From Heptranchias perlo (lineage: Eukaryota): a DNA stretch of 63,315 nt. The notes beneath the pieces are model-generated. The model was given only the letters and a program-made list of their open reading frames with translations. It made no database searches and was not told the origin of the DNA. Positions 2,475 through 32,759 of the stretch are shown here, piece after piece. The DNA lies in contig NC_090359.1 of NCBI RefSeq assembly GCF_035084215.1, forward strand, positions 24,366,001-24,429,315, written 5' to 3'. A program made the position numbers and the translations under genes. Within the stretch, counting starts at the first letter, position 1. The number at the start of each line of letters is the position of its first letter.

Positions 2475-2822
2475 GCCAGTCCGTGTGTACCGAGCACAGC
2501 TTAAAACATCAGGCAGTATGTGGAGGGACTGCTCTCCTTCCTTGTCATTTTACAGGTGGAGGAGAGCAAGCAGAGGTTACCTGGCAGAAAAAAGTTGCTT
2601 CTTCTGATCTGGTGGTCCATGCAGAACCTCCCAGCAGTGCCCAGGACATCATATATAAGCACAGAACAGGAATTCAGCAAGATTGGAACAAGAAAAAAGA
2701 TGCTGAGCTGACTATCAGGGGCATTACGTCGCAGGACGGAGGCACATATATCTGCTACGTCCGTCTACATCCGGAATCCAAAAGTGAAACGTGCTCTGAA
2801 ATATGCCTGGAAGTAAATCGAG
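2475..2822 (+). CDS. Gene A exon: Ig V-set domain, B7/butyrophilin-like
   Basis: cccacag|GC...CGA G|gtgagg, phase 1/1. LPCHF (B-strand Cys), VTWQ (C-strand Trp), QDIIYKHRT, DAELTIRGITSQDGGTYICYV (DxGxYxC). Confidence 0.9.
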
Positions 2823-6897: not shown

Positions 6898-7215
6898 GTG
6901 AAGATGCTGTCTGGGCAGCCTCCTCCCAGGTTACTGTGATGGCTGGTGAAGTGTTGGAGCTCCACTGCGGCTTTAACCCAAACTGCTTCAATTCAACGGC
7001 ATCGGCCGTGACGTGGAGTTACGGCGATGGTTCATCTGACGACATTCTCGTGCGCAATGAAAGGATTTCGACGGCAGCGTTCTGGGATGGGAATCGCATG
7101 GTGAGGTTTGAACCTGGCGATGGAAGTGCCACCCGAGGAGGTCAGTACCAATGTTGTCTTGGTGATGACCCCGCCCGACCAAAGAGGTGTGCGTTCATGA
7201 ACGTCACTGTCGCCG
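6898..7215 (+). CDS. Gene A exon: second Ig domain (divergent V/I-like)
   Basis: ttcgcag|GT...GCC G|gtaagt, phase 1/1. VTVMAGEVLELHC, AVTWSY, GGQYQCC, FMNVTVA. Confidence 0.85.
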
Positions 7216-17365: not shown

Positions 17366-17757
17366 GTATAAATGCAAGTTTTTGTTGTTTGAACCATTTG
17401 GCCCCTGGTACCTCACCTCAGTGACCACTCCTCATCTGCGAACCCAGGCGGAGTGCGTCAGGCAATTCTACTGTCAAGCACGGTCCTGCGCTCGTGACTT
17501 CTGCCCGTTCCTTCGAATTGCTGCCGTCACCGGCAAAGCTTTGACCATGTTTGTTCTGATATCCTGTCACACGGCCCACAAACCGCAGGGCAGGCCTGCT
17601 TCAAAGAACCACAAACATCCTGTGAGGCAACACACGACGAAAAACATTCAGGTCTGTTAAACGGACTCGTCGCCCAGAGGGAGAAGGGGCACTGAGGTCA
17701 AACTACACAGCGATAGAAGGTAAAGAGAAACACCCATCCCTCTCCAGGCCAGGAGAA

Positions 17758-17824
17758 ATGAACCAAAAAGTCCTCCTGTGGTCTTTCATCGTCCTGTCCG
17801 TCTGCTTTGGCCTTGATCCTCAAG
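17758..17824 (+). CDS. Gene B exon 1: signal peptide
   Basis: MNQKVLLWSFIVLSVCFGLDPQ G|gtaggg, phase 1. Confidence 0.85.
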
Positions 17825-17919
17825 GTAGGGGATATAATCTGAATCTATCGACGATAAGGCTACTGTTCTTGCCTCCTCACCATTAATGGTTTCATCTAAT
17901 CCCGATCTGTTATCTTGAG

Positions 17920-18905
17920 ATGAGGGGAGATTTAATAGAGGTGTTCAAAATCATAAAGGGTTCAGATAGAGTGAATAAGGAGAAACTGTTTCCAGTGGCA
18001 GAAGGGTCGGTAACCAGAGGATGCAGATTGAAGTTAATTGGCAAAAGAATCGGAGGCGACATGAGGAAAAAGTGTTTTTCACGCAGCGAGTTGTTATGAT
18101 CTGGAATGTGCTGCCTGAAAAGGCGGTGGAAGCAGATTCAATAGTTATATAAGGTATTGGTGAGACCGCACCTGGAATACTGCATACAGTTTTGGTGTCC
18201 ATACTTAAGAAAAGACATACTTGCTCTCGAGGCAGTACAAAGAAGGTTCACTCGGTTAATCCCGGGGATGAGGGGGCGGACATATGAGGAGAGGTTGAGT
18301 AGATTGGGACTCTACTCATTGGAGTTCAGAAGAATGAGAGGCGATCTTATTGAAACATATAAGATTGTGAAGGGGCTTGATCGGGTGGATGCGGTGAGGA
18401 TGTTCCCAAGGATGGGTGAAACTAGAATGAGGGGGCATAATCTTAGAATAAGGGGCTGCTCTTTCAAAACTGAGATGAGGAGAAACTTCTTCACTCAGAG
18501 GGTAGTAGGTCTGTGGAATTTGCTGCCCCAGGAAGCTGTGGAAGCTACATCATTAAATAAATTTAGAACAGAAATAGACAGTTTCCTAGAAGTAAAGGGA
18601 ATTAGGGGTTACGGGGAGCGGGCAGGAAATTGGACATGAATTTAGATTTGAGGTTAGGATCAGATCAGCCATGATCTTATTGAATGGTGGAGCAGGCTCG
18701 AGGGGCCGATTGGCCTACTCCTGCTCCTATTTCTTATGTTCTTATGTTCTTAACTTTCAAAAGGGAATTGGATAAATATTTGAAGGGGAAAAATTTGCAG
18801 GGCTTTGGGGGAAAGAGCAGGGGGGAGTGGGACTAATTGGACAGCTCTTTCAAAGAGCCGGCACGGGCATGATGGGCCGAATGGCCTCCTTCTGTGCTGT
18901 AAGAT
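17920..18905 (+). mobile_element. Nested CR1 fragments (young copy ~18148-18750 inside an older copy)
   Basis: Outer element breaks at TTCAATAG and resumes at TAACTTTCAAAAGGG. Confidence 0.85.
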
Positions 18906-20385
18906 TCTATTCTGTGTAAGATTTGCAGGTTTTTTTTTAATCCGGCCGTTAGAATTGCTACAGTTCATCAGGGGCAGGATGGTTGTAACAGGGACACAGC
19001 ACAGTGCAATAAAAACACAGGCCCCCCTTTGAAGGCTGCTTCAACTGTTTTGTTAAACTAGGCGGCTGTCAGGGTGGGTTTTGAGTCAAAAGTTGCAGCA
19101 AAGGCAAGAAGTTGGCGTTTGGAATTTGCTCTTTGGAATGATCAGGCATCGTGGAGTTGGGAAAAAAGAAATCTTATTTTTAAATTGCTGTTTTCCAAAG
19201 GTAAACACGAGAGGGAGAAAAGGTAATTCGGCCCATCGGTTCCCCACCCACCCACCCACCCACCCAACCCAGTGCCCCGGGGACCGACATTGACCCTAAC
19301 CGCCTGTCCGCCCACCCGGGGGGGAGAACCGAGTCGATGGGCGGTTAAAATCGATCGGGTGCCTAACCCGCCCAGATCCCGCCATCTTCAATTTTAACCT
19401 GCTCTGCGCCGCTGAGTTACACTGTACGGTTTAGAACTGAACTTGCAGCAAGAGCTGCTTTGCATGGAGGCGAACACCAGATATGTGCGGGTAGATTTTC
19501 TAGTTGGCGTCTGGCCTTACGGACTGGCTGCCCGTTGAATACACTGCGTGGTTTTCATTTAGGAATATAGGGACAGGAGGAGACCATTCAGCCCCTCGGG
19601 CCTGCTCCGCCGTTCAATTAAACTGTGGCTCATCTGTACCTCAACCCCATTTACCTGCCTTGGTTCCATCTCCCTTGATCCCCTTACCTGGCAAAAATCT
19701 ATCCATCTCAGTCTTGAAAGTTTCAATAGACCCCCCCCCCCACAGCATCCACGGCCTTTTGGGAGGGGAGAGTTCCAGATTTCTACGACCCTTTGCGTGA
19801 GAATGTTTTCCTGATTTCCCTCCTGAATGGCCTGGCGTTAATTTTAAGATTATGTCGCCCTTGTTCTTGATTTCCCCCGCCAGAGGAAAGAGTTTCTCCG
19901 TATTTACCCTATCGAGTCCTTTTAAGATTTGAAACACCTCGATCAGATCACCCCTCGACCTCCTGTCCTGGGGGGGGGGTCGCAAGCTAAGTCGATGCGA
20001 CCTGACTTCAGAGTTTGACACCCGGTATCATTCTGGTGAATCCGCGCTGCACCCCCTCCAAGATCCTTCCTGAGGCGCGGCGCCCAGAACTGAAGGCAGT
20101 CGCTCCAGATGGGGTCTAACCAAGGCTCTGTACAACTGAAGCATCACCTCTCACGCATTTGCAGTCCAGTCACTTTGAACGGTTTCTACAGCTAACCTCC
20201 AATCCACAACTCAAGTTTTATCCCTGGATGCCAAGTTGAAAATCTACCCCATGGCCTCAGCAAGTGAGGCCTCCCTCCCCCCGCACCACGAGATGGGAGG
20301 CGGGCAATGATCCTACCGTGTAGTAAGACTGGCCAATTATTTAGGAGTTACTCCAAAAAAAAAACCTTTTATTTCGCTCTTTCAG

Positions 20386-20745
20386 CTGCACAGGCAGGAA
20401 TGCTGGTCTCACAATCGCCCTCTACTCTCTCCGTCAAGCCAGGGGCAGACGTGCTTGTAAATTGCAGCTTTAAACTCCGAGTGGCAGAAGCATTCATCGA
20501 CTGGAAACAGGGAAATGTCACACTCGTCACCTGTAAGATCAGGCAAGCGAAAGATTGTTGCACGGTTCCTGAAGACCCGAGATTTAATGTCAGCGTTGAT
20601 TGGAAAACCCAAATCTCCACTTTACAGATCAGGAACGTTGAGCTGAAGGACGACAAGGTTTATTATTGTCACTTGCAGAGAGAAAAACCACTTCCAATCA
20701 AACAGGGACAGGGTGATGGGACAAACCTTACCATCGATGCACAAG
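20386..20745 (+). CDS. Gene B exon 2: germline-joined VJ Ig domain, CD28/CTLA-4/NKp30-like
   Basis: ctctttcag|CT...CAA G|gtaata, phase 1/1. VSQSP, VNCSF, IDWKQ, STLQIRNV, DDKVYYC, KPLP, GQGDGTNLTI. Confidence 0.93.
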
Positions 20746-21924
20746 GTAATACTGCTTCTCGGTGATTTTATAAACAAACAAGAGTAAAGAACTTGCATTT
20801 ATATAGCACATTACATGACCTCAGGATGTCCCAAAACGCTTTACAGCCAATTAAGTACTTTTGAAGTGCAGTCACTGTTGTAATGTAGGAAACGTGGCTG
20901 CCAATTTGCGCACAGCAAGATCCCACAAACAGCAATGAGATAATGACCAGATAATCTGTTTTACTGATGCTGGTTAAGGGATAAACAGGACACCGGGGGA
21001 GAACTCCCCCCGCTCTTCTTCGAAATAGTGGCCATGGGATCTTTTACGTCCACCTGAGAGGGGCAGACGGGGCCTCGGTTTAACGTCTCCTCTGAAAGAC
21101 GGCACCTCCGACAGTGCGGCACTCCCTCAGTACCGGCACTGGGGAGCGTCAGCCTGGATTTTGTGCTCAAGTCTCTGGATTGGGACTTGAACCCACGACC
21201 TTCTGACTCGGAGGGGAGAGTGCGACCCACTGAGCCTCGGCTGACACCTGAGGGGCCTGGGGGCTGGGGTTGGCTAAGTCAGCATTCGATCAGACGGGGT
21301 GGGGGGGAGCTCAGGGGAGTAGGACAGACCAGGGGAGTAGGGCGCACAGCGGCTGCAGTGTGTACCATCCACAGGATGCACTGCAGCTACTCGCCAAGGC
21401 TTCTTCGACAGCACCTCCCAAACCCGCGACCTCTACCACCTAGAAGGTCAAGGGCAGCAGGAACATGGGAACAACACCACCTGCACGTTCCCCTCCAAGT
21501 CACACACCATCCCGAATTGGAAATATATCGGCCGTTCCTTCATTGTCGCTGGGTCAAAATCCTGGAACTCCCTTCCTAACAGCACTGTGGGAGAACCTTC
21601 ACCACACGGACTGCAGCGGTTCAAGGCGGCGGCTCACCACCACCTTCTCAAGGGGCAATTAGAGATGGGCAATAAATGCCGGCCTCGCCAGCGACGCCCA
21701 CATCCCATGAACGAATAAAAAAAAAACAGAAAGTGTGATAGGTTTTTCTCCCCCAACAGTCTGTCCAGATGGAAAGTTCCAGTAGGATTATTAGCCAATC
21801 CAGGACTGAATGTAAAATCGGTCCAAGCAGCCCTGACTTTGGACGAACTGTCGGGAGTGTGATGAGGGACATCTCTCGGTGAAGTGAACCTGCATTTAAT
21901 GTGAAGGTTCGAACTCTTTTTCAG

Positions 21925-22044
21925 ATGAAAGATCACCTGATCTTTATAAGGCTCCGTATTGGACACTGACAGGTCTGCTGGTCGCTGGGATGCCCCTGTG
22001 CGTGTTGTGTATAAGGTGTCTCCTGCTTAAAGGCAACAGACCGG
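21925..22044 (+). CDS. Gene B exon 3: connecting peptide and transmembrane segment
   Basis: ctctttttcag|AT...CCG G|gtaagt gives DERSPDLYKAPYWTLTGLLVAGMPLCVLCIRCLLLKGNRP. Confidence 0.85.
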
Positions 22045-23173
22045 GTAAGTATAGCCTGCCAGTAAATGGTTATTTAAATGTCACAGAACTTACAGACACG
22101 GAGGCGAATGTTAATGCCCGGGGTCCAGTCCTGGGAGCTGCTGAGGAGGTTTATTTCAGTTTGGCTGTAGAAAGACAAATGTTGGCCAGGACACTGGGAG
22201 AACTCCCCTAATCCTCTTCAAATAGTGCTGTGGGATCCCTTCTATCCGTCTGACAGCCATTCACACTCACTGCCCTAGGCTCAGACAATGAGTGACCACT
22301 TACGTGAGGCGCTAGAGGGTCACCCATGGAGTTGGTCCCCCAACAGCAGACAGTGGTGCAGGTTGAGAGACAGATGTTCACCAGGACAAACTCCCCCGCT
22401 CTGCTTCGAAATAGTGCCGCGGAATCTTTAACGGGGCCCCGGTTTAACATCTCATACCGAAAGACGGCATCTCCGACAATGCGGTACCGGCACTGGGAGT
22501 GTCAGCCTCGATTATGGGCTCGAGTCTCGGGAGCGGGGCTCGAAGCAATGACCTTCTGACCCGGGGGGGGGGGGGGGGCAAGAGCAGTACCCACTGAGTC
22601 ACAGCTGACATTCTGTCGGGCTCCCTCCAGTTCCCGACTTCAGGTTGGAGTGATTGTCACTAATTTTGCTGTCAGAACCAAGGCGCACCGTTTGTGCCTC
22701 AGCAATCCTACAGTCCAGATCTCTGCTCCACCAGGCATCAGCCTTACCTTTCTCATTCCTTCTGTCTGTTGCATTGATCCTCCGATGGTCCCTCTCTGAA
22801 CTTCCCACTCTTGTTCCTCCCGAGCTCCAGATATCACACCAATCATTGTCCACGCTCTCCGTGCTGTTTGCGTCCTCGCCGTGTTGAAACAAAGACCCAC
22901 TGCACAGCCTCCATCTCCAACTCATTCTATGCCTTCCTCCTACAACCTTACGGGGCCTCCTTAAGCCCTAAGCTCATTGTTGCCGAGCTATTGCGTTCTG
23001 ATTTACCTCCTCCTCCTCTTTTCAGCCCTACGCTCAGTTAGGGAGATTTGAGAGCAGTGCAAGCTGTATGGATTATGTTTTAAGGGGTTGATATGAAGGA
23101 CCCACTGGCCTTTTCTCCTCCCCCTACCCCCTCCGTTCATTCTTATCTACTGATATTTGTGCGATTCTTGCAG

Positions 23174-23241
23174 GAGCGAGATCAGGATCACAGGAAGGTG
23201 GAGAAGGAGATGACGACTGTACCCGACCAAAGGAGAATAAG
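23174..23241 (+). CDS. Gene B exon 4: cytoplasmic (GC donor)
   Basis: ttcttgcag|GA...AAG|gcaagt gives GARSGSQEGGEGDDDCTRPKENK, phase 1 to 0. Confidence 0.65.
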
Positions 23242-23619
23242 GCAAGTTTGTCCTGCAATTTACAGAGGGCAGTTTCGGTACAAATAAGGGGCTTTTTGCC
23301 ACAAGAAACCTGTCCATTTTTGATGGACCTCACCCCCCGCCCTCTCACCGCACTCTCCAGACCAATTTTAACCATTTGCCTCAGTGCCCATCCCTGATCA
23401 TTTATTTCATGCGGTACATTTGCTGAAACCCTTGGCAACCAGTTAATTTGTTTGTGACCCTTGTACCATTAACATTGTTGTTTGGGATAACTCCAGATGG
23501 TTTTTCTTTCTCCAGGGCCCCATTTACAGGGGTGGGGGGTGGGGGGGCAGTAGGGAGGTGGGGGGAGGTTGGAGGGCGAGAGATTCTGTTGAATCACCAT
23601 TTTCTACCATTAGATATTC

Positions 23620-24550
23620 AAAGAACGATAGAGGCAGAGGGAGAGACACAGAGAGACAGAGAAATAGAAAGATATAGAGCNNNNNNNNNNNNNNNNNNNN
23701 NNNNNNNNNNNNNNNNNNNNNNNNNNNNNNNNNNNNNNNNNNNNNNNNNNNNNNNNNNNNNNNNNNNNNNNNNNNNNNNNNNNNNNNNNNNNNNNNNNNN
23801 NNNNNNNNNNNNNNNNNNNNNNNNNNNNNNNNNNNNNNNNNNNNNNNNNNNNNNNNNNNNNNNACAGAGATAGAGAGATGGATAGATATATAGAGAGATA
23901 GACAGATAGAGAGATAGATGGGGAGATAGATAGATAGGGAGATAGATAGATAGGGAGATAGAGAACTAGATNNNNNNNNNNNNNNNNNNNNNNNNNNNNN
24001 NNNNNNNNNNNNNNNNNNNNNNNNNNNNNNNNNNNNNNNNNNNNNNNNNNNNNNNNNNNNNNNNNNNNNNNNNNNNNNNNNNNNNNNNNNNNNNNNNNNN
24101 NNNNNNNNNNNNNNNNNNNNNNNNNNNNNNNNNNNNNNNNNNNNNNNNNNNNNNNNNNNNNNNNNNNNNNNNNNNNNNNNNNNNNNNNNNNNNNNNNNNN
24201 NNNNNNNNNNNNNNNNNNNNNNNGTGAAGCTCCCTCTACACTGCTCCATTAAACACTCCCAGGGCAGGTACAGCACGGGTTTGACACAGAGTAAAGCTCC
24301 CTCTACACTGTCCCATCAAACACTCCCAGGGCAGGTACAGACAGACAGAGGGTGATAGACAGGCAGAGGAAGATAACGTCAGAGAGAGAGTTAGAGGGAC
24401 AGAGAGAAATAAACAAAGAGAGAGACTGAGAGAGAGACTGAGGGAGAGACTGAGGGAGAGAGAGCAGGACAGAGAGAGAGAGCGACTGAGAGAGATAGAG
24501 ATAGACAGAGGGGCAGAGAGAAATAGAGATAGACAGAAAGAGATAGAGAC
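23620..24550. repeat. GA/GATA microsatellite tract with N gaps
   Basis: Direct inspection. Confidence 0.9.
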
Positions 24551-24684
24551 CGAGTCAGACTCTAACAGCTATGGGGTAAATGTCCCATTAGTGTATCATA
24601 TCAGACAAGGAGTTTGTGTGATAGTTAACACGTTGGGTGCTCTCCCTACTGCTCACCAGTACTGACTTGGAACAGTCAGGATGA

Positions 24685-26199
24685 ATCATAGAAAGGTTAC
24701 AGCACGGAAGGAGGCCATTCGGCCCATCGAGTCCATGCCGGCTCTATGAATGAGCAATCCAGCTAGTCCCACTCCCCCGCCCCATCCCCGTAGCCCTGCA
24801 AATTTTTTCCTTTCAAGTACTTATCCAGTTCCCTTTCGAAGGCCATGATTGAATCTGCCTCCACCACCCCCTCGGGCAGTGCATTCCAGATCCTAACCAC
24901 TCGCTGTGTAAAAAAGTTTTTCCTCATGTCACCTTTGATTCTTTTACCAATTACCTTAAATCTATGCCCTCTGGTTCTTGACCTTCCACCAATGGGAACA
25001 GTTTCTCTCTATCTACTCTGTCTAGACCCTTCATGATTCTGAACACCTCAATCAAATCTCCTCTCTGTTCCAAGGAGAACAACCCCAGCTTCTCCAGTCT
25101 ATCCACGTAACTAAAGTCCCTCATCCCTGGAATCATTCTAGTAAATCTCTTCTGCACCCTCCCGAAGGCCTTCACATCTTTCCTGAAGTGCGGTGCCCAG
25201 AACTGGACACAATACTCCAGTTGTGGTCGAACCAGTGTTTTATAAAGGTTCATCATGACTTCCTTGCTTTTGTACTCTATGCCTCTATTTATAAAGCCCA
25301 GGATCCCGTAAGCTTTTTTAACCGCTTTCTCAACCTGCCCTGTCACCTTCAACGATTTGTGCACATATACCCCCAGATCTCTCTGTTCCTGTACCTCTTT
25401 TAGAATTGTGCCCTCGAGTTTATATTGCCTCTCCTCATTTTTTCTACCGAAATGCATCACCTCGCATTTGTCTGCGTTAAACTTCATCTGCCACATGTTC
25501 GCCCATGCCACCAGTGTGTCTATATCCTCTTGAAGTCTATCACTATCCTCCTCACTGTTCAAAACTTGGAAGAGTAGTGTGTCATCTGCAAATTTTGAAA
25601 TTGTGCCCTGTACACCCAAGTCCAGGTCATTAATATATATCAAGAAAAGCAGTGGTCTCAGCACTGACCCCTGGGGAACACCACTGTACACCTCCCTCCA
25701 GTCCGAAAAACAACTGTTCACCACAACTCTCTGTTGCTTAACCAATTCTGTGTCCATGTTGCTGCTGCCCCTTTTATTCCATGGGCCACAATCTTAATAG
25801 CAAGTCTACCATGTGGCACTTTATCTTTTTGAAAATCTACATATACCACATCAACTACATTGCCCTCATCTACCCTCTTTGTTACCTCATCAAAAAACTC
25901 TATCAAGTTGGTTAAACATGATTTGCCTTTAACAAATCCGTGCTGGCTTTCCCTAATCAATCCACACTTATCCAAGTGACTGTTAATTTTGTCCTGGATT
26001 ATTGTTTCCAAAAGTTTCCCCACCACTGAAGTTAAACTGACTGGCCTATAGTTGCTGGGTTTATCCTTACACCCTTTTTTAAACAAGGGTGTAACATTTT
26101 CAATTGTCCAGTGTCTGGCACCACCCCCGTACCGAAGGATGTTTGGAAGATTGTGGCCAGTACCTCCGCAATTTTCACCCTTACTTCCCTCAGCATCTG
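24685..26199 (-). mobile_element. CR1 LINE ORF2 fragment (RT), disrupted
   Basis: NYRPVSLTS, QHGFVKGKSCLTNL, GVPQGSVL, FADD motifs spread across frameshifts. Confidence 0.93.
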
Positions 26200-26308
26200 C
26201 GTGGCCCAGGGCCACGCCTGGTGGGGCAATCTCCCGCTGCGCCATTGGCGTAGACAACTTATAAACGGGGGCTTGATAAACCATTTAACGTCTCTGTGAT
26301 CTGCCCAG

Positions 26309-26488
26309 CTCCTCATGATGAACCAATGGCCCGCAGGTGAGACGTCGTACAGTGAGAGCACAGTGCAAGTGGGGAGATCGGAGTCAGCTCAGCCCACCAA
26401 CGAATCTGGAAGCGATGCGATCTATTCACAAATCTGTCACAGCACAACACAGCGCGTTCAAACTTTGTACGAGCAAATTGGCTCCTGA
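26309..26488 (+). CDS. Gene B exon 5: tyrosine-motif cytoplasmic tail
   Basis: tctgcccag|CTC in phase 0 gives LLMMNQWPAGETSYSESTVQVGRSESAQPTNESGSDAIYSQICHSTTQRVQTLYEQIGS*. Confidence 0.78.
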   Translation, partial: LLMMNQWPAGETSYSESTVQVGRSESAQPTNESGSDAIYSQICHSTTQRVQTLYEQIGS

Positions 26489-26779
26489 AATAAGCTCTGA
26501 GAAACAAACAGTGGTTCGGCCGCACTTGATGGGAATCACCCTCTTGGCTGCGTCGATGACAGAAAGGACCGTGCATAAACCCGGATATTTAAAGTAAGAA
26601 CGACCTGCTTCAGGAGGGGGAGGGGGAGCAATCATTACCATCACCGTTTGCAAAAAACGCATACAGCTTGTGTTTGTTCATTGCCTCAGGGCTTCTGGAA
26701 ACATTTCACAACCAATAAAGTACTTTTGAAGTGCAGTCAGTGTCTTTTCTTTGTGGGCAAACGCGCCAAGCAATTTGCA

Positions 26780-31835: not shown

Positions 31836-32759
31836 TACAGCACTTTAGCTGTAGGTCCAGGTAATTCTTAAAAGAGTTGAGGGTCCCTGCCTCTACCACC
31901 AATTCGGGCAGTGAATTCCATACACCCACCACCCTCTGGGTAAAAACGTTTTTCCTCATGTCCCCTCTAACCTTCCATCAATCAGCTTAAATCTATGTCC
32001 TCCAGTTCTTGAACTCTCTGCTGGGGGAAACAGGTACTTCCTGTCTACTCTATCTGGGCCCCTCATAATTTTCTGGGCGTCTGCTCCATGCATCCACTAT
32101 CTACAGGGGGGAAGGATTTCCCTAATCTCTAAACCTTGTGCCAACAGGCTTGTGAATTTCCTACAGTACCCTCTAATTATTACTAATATCACAGTTTGAT
32201 TTCAGTATCATGTTTGTTTGTAAAATATTTTAAATGGACATAAGTGAAAAGAGAACATGTGAATTAAGATTGACGCAAAATGAAATCTGAAAGTTTATAA
32301 TGGGAGTATTTTGACAATTTTAATCAGCGTCTGATATAAACGGAACTCACCACGCGACTGTTCCGTTTTGCCAAAATGGCCATTGGGTTTGTCTCTTGGA
32401 GCCAGTAATGGTCAGTGCCTGTCATGTAATCTATCTCATCGACATAAATTGACCGAACCTGCTCAAAATCCTCTTCTTTAGCCAGGCAAAAGTCCAGCTC
32501 CGACGCTGAGTACTTGACATAGTCAAGTGAAACACAAAGATTAATATCATCGCTGAATATGCCGTGAGGTTTGGGTTTTGATTTAGAGACAGAATGTGTT
32601 GATCCCGGGCCTCAGGGGCTGCCTGTCACTCAGGCACAAAGAGCCGTGTTTATTTAGGTTTGATGGTTCACGTCTGGGCCACTAGATGGCAGGTGAGTCG
32701 ACAAGCAACAACTTGCATTTATAAAGCACGTTAAACATGGAAAAACAATCGAAACCGCT

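Follow-up and report, generated by a model that had tools for sequence, protein, structure and literature searches.

The window analysed here is the whole 63,315-nucleotide stretch of the Heptranchias perlo genome at C38:24,366,001–24,429,315. On its plus strand, at 24.384–24.392 Mb of C38, lies a five-exon gene for a receptor with a single immunoglobulin variable-type (IgV) domain and three tyrosines in its cytoplasmic tail. We lean towards the reading that this protein is an inhibitory immune-cell receptor that recruits SHP-type phosphatases. The gene structure, its splicing, the ortholog clade and the conserved tyrosines are established parts of this picture, and the fold class is assigned from a predicted model. 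The signalling logic is conventional, and automatic models of the orthologs are already public, without a name.

Gene structure and splicing

Exons of 67, 360, 120, 68 and 180 nt (795 nt in total; intron phases 1, 1, 1 and 0) join into an open reading frame (ORF) that stops after 264 residues and comprises a signal peptide, an IgV domain, a stalk of 12–13 residues, a transmembrane (TM) helix and an 86-residue tail. This model had been drawn in a first-pass annotation from the letters of the window, and its lengths, its frame and all four junctions are borne out by translation and by contigs from four sequencing runs. The runs represent one sample from one study, possibly the individual used for the assembly itself; none is recorded as RNA, and their RNA nature is a guess made by the software. 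Joints between exons 2 and 3, 3 and 4, and 4 and 5 are present in contigs of all four runs. The last two (22043/23173 and 23239/26307, each with two letters that fit either side) make exon 5, which the annotation had attached to the receptor, part of the transcript. The annotation had also called for its junctions to be confirmed by RNA sequencing; contigs join every exon–exon boundary, and single contigs (record 13 of X3, record 18 of X4) each lead from exon 1 through exon 2 as far as exon 5.

No differing letters are listed between contigs and genome across exons 2–5. Searched against the 3.25-Gb genome of the species itself, the V exon gave eight matches, one identical and the remaining seven at 24–34% identity. 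With joints at splice sites and a single identical genome match, an artefact or a retrocopy is ruled out: the gene is real and spliced. Introns 1–3 are bounded by GT–AG and intron 4 by GC–AG, a GC donor that was absent from the first-pass annotation. An upstream ORF of 37 codons (17547–17660, plus strand) lies inside the transcribed 5′ region. Run X1 additionally holds an unspliced 1.5-kb contig (18882–20413) that extends from intron 1 into exon 2 and may stem from intron retention, from pre-mRNA or from an alternative start. Dropping the TM exon would preserve the frame and yield a secreted form; no exon-3-skipping joint was found among the 15 joints listed of 163.

Conservation of the tail tyrosines

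The tail carries tyrosines at positions 219, 244 and 259. It had been annotated as a two-tyrosine tail bearing an ITSM (immunoreceptor tyrosine-based switch motif), preceded by a motif like the ITIM (immunoreceptor tyrosine-based inhibitory motif) and separated from it by 11 residues. The motif strings and the x11 spacer were given correctly, and TLYEQI at Y259 does fit the ITSM consensus here; the number of tyrosines was not correct, and the Thr that defines the ITSM, two residues before the phosphotyrosine (pY−2), occurs in none of the seven orthologs. Conservation was scored on these seven full-length proteins, all automatic gene models, six of which keep at least one YxxI. Y244 is retained as YS[E/R]I in five, all with Ser at pY+1, and is the position to which the single YxxI of three ray proteins corresponds. 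Of the two tyrosines whose conservation the annotation had proposed to check, Y244 is thus largely kept, but Y259 has a tyrosine counterpart in two orthologs (SLYTQI and SLYSYP) and none in five.

This pattern bears on an alternative that we regard as unlikely, in which YS[E/Q/R]I serves mainly as a YxxPhi internalisation signal and the protein, an endocytic or ligand-competing receptor, removes or blocks its ligand in the manner of CTLA-4 and signals little through phosphatases. Only one feature of the tail is well conserved, a lone YxxI close to the C-terminus; it forms the last four residues of two ray proteins, and the −2 position of Y244 is not ITIM-like. A precedent exists in teleost CTLA4, whose C-terminal YxNF supports endocytosis according to PMC11599192. 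Against such a role stand the canonical ITIMs of two of the seven orthologs and of three related proteins, as well as the pY+1 Ser in all five orthologs that keep Y244.

Those related proteins share with this gene a Pro–Leu–Pro (PLP) loop in the V domain. Among the five scanned (six records), three combine an ITIM with an ITSM (P0007, P0011 and the newt protein P0069), and P0009 and P0027/P0085 have neither. A SLAM-like switch, in which SAP or EAT-2 would bind TLYEQI in competition with SHP-2, appears very improbable for the gene studied here. The motif matches TxYxx(V/I) and has the hydrophobic pY−1 residue that SH2D1A binding needs according to PMC12151841; with the pY−2 Thr missing from all seven orthologs and the tyrosine itself kept in two of them, it would be at most a species-specific gain.

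The two distal motifs had also been read as DxxYxxI-x11-YxxI, similar to an immunoreceptor tyrosine-based activation motif (ITAM). The string is present, but such a pair recurs in one of the seven orthologs, the horn shark, with an identical 11-residue spacer. That it acts as a long-spaced ITAM recruiting Syk or ZAP70 we consider quite unlikely. An ITAM-like pair (spacer 6–12) arose in 0.17% of 100,000 shuffles of the 86-residue tail, and FcgammaRIIA provides an example of a long-spaced ITAM; the usual spacer, however, is 6–8, and the horn-shark protein lacks the acidic pY−3 residue and has two ITIM matches. At Y259, the horn shark reads SxYxxI. In the same shuffles, an ITSM arose in 1.6% and two YxxI/L motifs in 1.1%, all for motifs picked after being seen. 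The tail motifs are unlikely to result from composition, and conservation lends support to neither ITSM nor ITAM function. No tail scanned contains a YxxM or an ITAM spacer of 6–8, and YxN is absent from the tail of this protein.

The most proximal tyrosine offers another view of the tail. Y219 aligns with VLYNEI in the horn shark, VLYSVI in the bamboo shark and EEYSEI in the catshark. A canonical ITIM (VxYxxI) stands at this position in two of the seven orthologs, with the Y244 tyrosine following 24 and 25 residues later; in H. perlo, where the motif reads TSYSES, the +3 hydrophobic residue of the ITIM is lost. The PD-1 tyrosines are 25 apart (x19 between hexamers), according to PMC11599192 (supplement 4). 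From these alignments, the older signalling pair was probably Y219 and Y244 rather than the pair chosen in the first-pass annotation; the ITSM and ITAM readings are lineage-specific. The annotation had held the polarity of signalling to be undecidable from sequence; orthologs and cluster paralogs together tilt it towards inhibition.

Proposed mechanism

We propose that the gene encodes a type I membrane protein, built of one IgV domain and a tail with three tyrosines, which would be expressed in leukocytes. Its ligand would be a cell-surface member of the immunoglobulin superfamily, probably B7-like, engaged through the invariant PxP/GxG loop by analogy with CD28-family receptors. On ligand binding, Src-family kinases would phosphorylate Y244 (and Y259), and the phosphorylated tail would recruit SHP-type phosphatases (SHP-1, SHP-2 or SHP-2L). 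The older signalling unit would have been the Y219 ITIM together with Y244, spaced as in PD-1. Heptranchias perlo, with this ITIM decayed, carries Y244 and the distal S/T-x-Y-x-x-I, and rays retain Y244 only; with such differences in tail motifs, signal strength probably varies by lineage.

The fit of the tail to the SHP-2 preferences quoted in PMC12151841 is partial. The residues Ser, Gln and Ile at +1, +2 and +3 of Y244 and Thr and Ile at −2 and +3 of Y259 suit the C-terminal SH2 domain of SHP-2 as described there. Several observations weigh against phosphatase recruitment. By the ITIM consensus of the same paper, (S/I/V/L)xYxx(I/V/L), the H. perlo tail contains no strict ITIM; AIYSQI, which had been called ITIM-like, misses this consensus with Ala at pY−2, and Ala or another non-preferred residue holds that position in all five orthologs that keep Y244. 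The pY+1 residue of Y259 is Glu, outside the preferences quoted from PMC12151841. The catshark protein carries His in place of the Y244 tyrosine, the tail of the whale-shark model contains no YxxI/L, and the single YxxI of the ray proteins makes binding of both SH2 domains in cis impossible there. Finally, the last exons of the ortholog models are possibly wrong, these being automatic models.

V domain, stalk and transmembrane segment

Exon 2 matches the Pfam V-set family (E 4.6e-9) and provides the landmarks C49, W62 and C117, with extra cysteines at 72, 80 and 81 and four N-glycosylation sequons. An AlphaFold model of the domain, built on a 17-row alignment, had a predicted local distance difference test (pLDDT) score of 93. 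The best structural matches of this predicted model were T-cell receptor (TCR) V domains (Z 16.5, root-mean-square deviation 1.9, 109 residues aligned), with PD-1 at rank 22 (Z 15.1). Foldseek likewise returned antibody and TCR domains, with murine PD-1 at rank 16, and the best 60 matches of a PDB sequence search were all antibody or TCR chains. CTLA-4 and CD28 were absent from the fold-search rows listed, below which lower-ranking matches are possible. In the ESM Atlas, the horn-shark ortholog fell nearly equally close to clusters of an unnamed V-set protein (0.97), PD-1 (0.96) and CTLA-4-like proteins (0.96). With the V exon as query at longer lengths, a word-index search of proteins retrieved 0 of 131 candidates, and with P0002 two only.

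The FG loop reads YxC-x6-PLP-x3-GxGxGT, and E122, P124, P126, G130, G132, G134 and T135 are invariant in all eight orthologs. Shark CD28/CTLA4 genes have P-[P/L]-P plus GxG according to PMC11599192, and it is because the PxP/GxG of the FG loop lies in the CTLA-4 register that the ectodomain looks CTLA-4-like, as it had been described. The description holds for this loop but not for the rest of the domain. The CD28/CTLA4-type V exons of the same genome lie on C7, one of them with E values of 2e-18 for CTLA-4 and 4e-14 for CD28; two C7 genes align with the V domain at 21–22 bits (E 0.06–0.11). Within the genome, the top scores were 64 and 68 bits (32% identity) for two of the V exons with an 'EIPPP' loop on C11, of the V-C1 type, followed by 47 bits for a CD28H-like exon on C32, 45 for a CD28HL-like exon on C1, 40–44 for the paralogs on C38 and 29 for an NKp30-like exon on C42. 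Beyond the FG loop, the V domain is no nearer to the C7 CD28/CTLA-4 genes than to B7-like domains.

The number of cysteines in the V domain is odd (49, 72, 80, 81 and 117), where six of the eight orthologs have four; a second intradomain disulfide between C72 and C80 or C81 is likely, leaving one thiol free here. That YxxM and a stalk Cys are missing, which had been used to suggest a monomer as in PD-1, holds for this protein, and one of the eight orthologs has a Cys in the stalk. YxxxxT in the TM segment, found in none of the nine proteins, also accords with a monomer. On the other side are the unpaired ectodomain Cys and a TM cysteine, C168 (21999–22001), that is invariant in all eight orthologs, and with these the monomer claim is unproven. 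A lone Arg at the TM edge (R173) occurs in none of the eight orthologs, and the TM segment has no conserved charged residue.

Orthologs and phylogeny

The six best of 76 matches in a search of 1.84 billion representatives (43–51% identity, E 1e-28 to 4e-21) were proteins of the cloudy catshark, horn shark, sawfish, whale shark, bamboo shark and stingray, and a profile search added devil ray and small-spotted catshark, for a total of eight, each labelled 'uncharacterized' or 'hypothetical'. These protein and profile searches found no direct ortholog outside elasmobranchs. No paper was found for the six ortholog accessions and gene ids, five of which are absent from the supplements of PMC11599192; subscription literature could hold a prior description.

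Trees were built on 118 columns, the second leaving out 20 of 59 rows (mostly extra domains, near-duplicates and one long branch). A clade of seven V domains received support of 99/98 and 100/99 in the two trees. The smaller tree placed it weakly (82/81) as sister to the PLP-loop V domains of the same cluster, a clade (96/85) with one Xenopus and one newt protein among its members. Separation from named CD28 members was also weak (82/88). Six forced placements (with CD28/CTLA4, CD28H/HL, NKp30, a C28 gene, the V-C1 genes or Ig/TCR) gave p values of 0.21–0.38 in the approximately unbiased test; none was rejected, and the trees do not discriminate among these deep placements. The tree does not establish membership of the CD28 family, although membership in the broad sense is likely from structural features of the sequence, namely the IgV–TM–cytoplasmic layout, the proline motif in complementarity-determining region 3 (CDR3) and the G-strand GxG.

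Genomic neighbourhood

Features of the gene and separate V exons in the window are collected in Table 1. The flanking DNA was contiguous from 24.246 to 24.540 Mb and was sampled elsewhere as 10-kb blocks, the neighbouring genes being known from exons; annotation covered 150 of 239 candidate ORFs, 148 of 523 plus two others, and eight ORFs of the window.

Table 1. Positions in the window of the receptor gene, its motifs and separate V exons
Feature	Position	Strand	Basis or remark
B7/butyrophilin-like V exon, separate gene	2475–2822	+	15 kb upstream; second Ig exon at 6898–7215
Exon 1, 5′ untranslated part	17416–17757	+	Contig X1 record 1 begins at 17416, the limit of contig reach
Exon 1, translated part (67 nt, phase 1): start codon ATG, signal peptide	17758–17824	+	
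Exon 2: VJ-type IgV domain within a single exon	20386–20745	+	Pfam V-set
FG loop and G strand, E-[KR]-P-x-P-[IV]-x2-G-x-G-x-G-T	20682–20723	+	Ortholog alignment
Exon 3: short Cys-free stalk and TM helix (residues ~155–177)	21925–22044	+	Hydropathy, contig joints
Exon 4: cytoplasmic, 68 nt, ends at GC donor	23174–23241	+	Contig joints
Exon 5, coding: three-tyrosine tail and stop	26309–26488	+	Translation, contigs
Y219 motif TSYSES, decayed ITIM counterpart	26342–26359	+	Motif scan, ortholog alignment
Y244 motif AIYSQI, conserved tyrosine	26417–26434	+	Ortholog alignment
Y259 motif TLYEQI, fits ITSM consensus here only	26462–26479	+	Ortholog alignment
AATAAA poly(A) signal	26714–26719	+	Contig 3′ ends at 26709–26734
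Paralogous PLP-loop V exon, separate gene	54917–55273	+	C38, 24.421 Mb

Exon matches place the gene within an immune cluster of B7/butyrophilin-, PILR-, NAIP- and C1s-like genes. B7/butyrophilin-like V exons occur at 24.272, 24.368, 24.461 and 24.817 Mb, with CD276 and BTN3 as best matches for the two that were searched; those beyond the window are L009:5875–6242 (minus), L022:1594–1947 and L094:6699–7454. They carry an extra Cys near each domain end, possibly an A–G strand disulfide, and three that were aligned are 33–36% identical. A PILR-like V exon (24.25 Mb; L057:5932–6300, minus; PILRA E 4e-14), which has Ser at the F-strand Cys position and is in neither tree, lies ~131 kb upstream. About 170 kb downstream is a NAIP-like BIR exon (24.56 Mb; L040:1121–1768, minus; mammalian NAIP E 2e-55 against XIAP 1e-14), and at 24.63 Mb a C1s-like protease (E 7e-72) is represented by CUB, EGF and single-exon protease pieces (L041 and L042:7264–8079). 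Further out are a histidine N-acetyltransferase-like gene at 24.03 Mb and a DAGAT/MOGAT-like gene at 24.10 Mb. In human, PILR, NAT16 and MOGAT3 are located at 7q22 and C1S at 12p13. Peptidase M23 exons, with Pfam scores below the cut-off, occur at 24.04 Mb (L052:3113–3424, minus) and 24.41 Mb (window 45353–45565), and we take them to be LECT2-like; the horn-shark model P0007 is an apparent fusion of a LECT2-like exon to a multi-V receptor.

The paralogous PLP-loop V exon of the window shares 51% identity with the first V domain in multi-V proteins of rays and skates. A second one on C38 lies at 24.790 Mb (L049:35–409); within the 63-kb window, no other V exon of this type turned up. An unplaced segment, C1237:49664–50017 (L037), gives the same match as the exon at 24.79 Mb and may represent an alternate haplotype or a duplicate of recent origin. 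A PLP-loop paralog in horn shark, sawfish and stingray is recorded on a contig equal in length to that of the ortholog. The window also holds adjacent genes for tRNA-Glu(CTC) and tRNA-Lys(CTT) (47714–47785 and 47801–47873, minus strand) and a non-repeat ORF of 95 residues (32327–32611, minus) that looks cyclin-like by eye and has no Pfam match.

Four B7-like V exons fall within 0.55 Mb, and the neighbouring B7-like V proteins are candidate ligands. A bolder proposal, which we hold to be improbable, is that the gene represents a tenth, elasmobranch-wide CD28-like branch in an undescribed complex of alternating PxP-loop V receptors and B7-like genes, whose B7-like proteins are its ligands, forming a linked receptor–ligand cassette. 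Since the gene fits none of the nine members surveyed to date, the early checkpoint repertoire may exceed the catalogue. The tails themselves, with three, two or one tyrosine motifs and the ITIM kept or decayed, form a natural series for the tuning of SHP-recruiting tails, and the C38 cluster and the candidate CD28HL3 on C28 described below are testable targets for comparative immunology.

Comparison with known receptors

A 2024 survey of the CD28 family of jawed vertebrates recognizes nine members: CD28, CTLA4, ICOS, CD28H, CD28HL1–3, CD28X and PD-1 (Quiniou et al., PMC11599192). The gene shares with the family, as defined in that survey, the single IgV–TM–tail layout, the YxC-x6-P[L]P loop followed by the G-strand GxG, and tyrosine motifs in the tail; none of the member-specific motif sets given there was found in it. 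It also lies apart from its relatives in the genome, being on C38, whereas C7 carries the CD28/CTLA4-like genes, C32 the CD28H-like gene, C1 a V exon of the CD28HL-like type and C28 the markers of CD28HL3.

Two cassette-type CD28/CTLA4 genes of the three-gene cassette were found at C7:95.28 and 95.55 Mb, and location on C38 rules the gene out as a member of that cassette. CD28, CTLA4 and ICOS are likewise rejected by the loop (EKPLPI versus [MLI][YF]PPPY), by the lack of YxxM and YxxxxT and by the low scores against C7. CD28H, CD28HL1 and CD28HL2 have E-I-P in CDR3 where this gene has E[KR]P, and their tails carry YxN[VIMT], Y[ED]SF or YxNx, whereas YxN is missing here; the C32 gene matches the CD28H loop of the epaulette shark at 18 of 20 residues. 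The PPP loop and EYEDM tail of CD28X are not present.

The ITAM consensus is YxxL/I-x6-8-YxxL/I, and the gene is excluded from the ITAM receptors by the lack of a 6–8 spacer in the scanned tails and by the recurrence of the x11 pair in one ortholog only. The class of ITSM receptors (SLAM/PD-1 type) is rejected on the TxYxx(V/I) match, which is present here and in none of the seven orthologs. Orthology to NKp30 (NCR3), which has a charged TM residue, is rejected as well: a separate NCR3-like gene is present on C42, and R173 is not shared by the orthologs. With NKp30 and the C11 V-C1 genes, which are presumably PRARP-like, the gene has in common a J-like GxGxGT end inside the V exon; unlike them, it has no C1 domain and no conserved charged TM residue and carries a long tyrosine tail. 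At the C11 locus (53.8–54.4 Mb; L002, L003, L004 and L006) are four clustered V exons of the non-rearranging kind, their loops reading [EF]IPPP or TIPPP; related public entries are V-C1-TM proteins auto-named 'Ig light chain-like'. XMIV genes of Xenopus are V genes linked to the major histocompatibility complex (MHC), in the class III location. The MHC class I matches of the H. perlo genome are on unplaced contigs, and proteasome, MHC-I and TFR markers gave no placement of C38.

A further comparison is with the PLP-loop multi-V receptors of the cluster (P0007, P0011, P0012, P0027 and P0042, and the amphibian P0055 and P0069), all unnamed or loosely auto-named. They share the cluster chromosome and the PxP loop, and three have ITIM/ITSM tails, but the elasmobranch members have two to three V domains and identity to this protein is ~25–33%.

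CD28HL3 of bichir, gar, sturgeon and otophysans resembles the gene in its proximal ITIM, its distal YS[E/D][I/V] and its predicted inhibitory role; the gene differs by a shorter spacing, a third tyrosine, a CDR3 of E[KR]PxP[IV] and another chromosome. According to PMC11599192, CD28HL3 has a CDR3 proline and a tail with an ITIM plus V[TL]YS[ED][VI] and was not found in Chondrichthyes. That the gene is this missing CD28HL3, relocated to another chromosome, would be compatible with any of the mechanisms above and with the trees, in which no tested placement was rejected. The tail comparison points neither way, with the ITIM found in two of seven orthologs and decayed here and the distal motif different at −2. 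We think the identity very unlikely. Of the synteny markers searched (pla2g1b and tmem233 were outside the search), PRKAB matches lie on C28 and C9 and CCDC60 on C28, neither on C38. C28 also contains a different, putative single-V gene (C28:10.197–10.206 Mb; L078:7527–8063, ~10,199,500 and L079:6154–6396) that has both a TM-like exon and one for the tail, the latter encoding STYATL and VVYSDP (SxYxxL and VVYSD). It shares the chromosome of PRKAB (11.99 Mb, 1.8 Mb away) and CCDC60 (15.5 Mb) and lies ~25 kb from a V segment of the Ig light-chain type; no V exon was found within 100 kb around PRKAB. This gene is a positional candidate for the shark CD28HL3 missing from the PMC11599192 survey.

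PD-1 shares with the gene a single IgV domain without a stalk Cys, and the distance from ITIM to second tyrosine is 24–25 in two orthologs. The five-exon plan of PD-1 is also like that of this gene. It is rejected as an ortholog because PxP is invariant here, where the CDR3 of PD-1 has no conserved prolines, because the residue after the C-strand Trp is K, V, A, I or N instead of Tyr, and because both tail motifs, (I/V)(D/E)Y(A/G)(E/V)L(D/E)F and (T/V)EYATI, are lacking. PD-1 is linked to SNED1, MUC4, TFRC and PCYT1A; none of 17 NIDO matches (SNED1, MUC4) and none of three TFR_dimer matches, used as markers of this linkage, fell on C38, the genes not being individually identified and PD-1 not located. 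We slightly favour a receptor that would work like a checkpoint of the PD-1 or CD28HL3 type; by motif or locus, it is an ortholog of neither.

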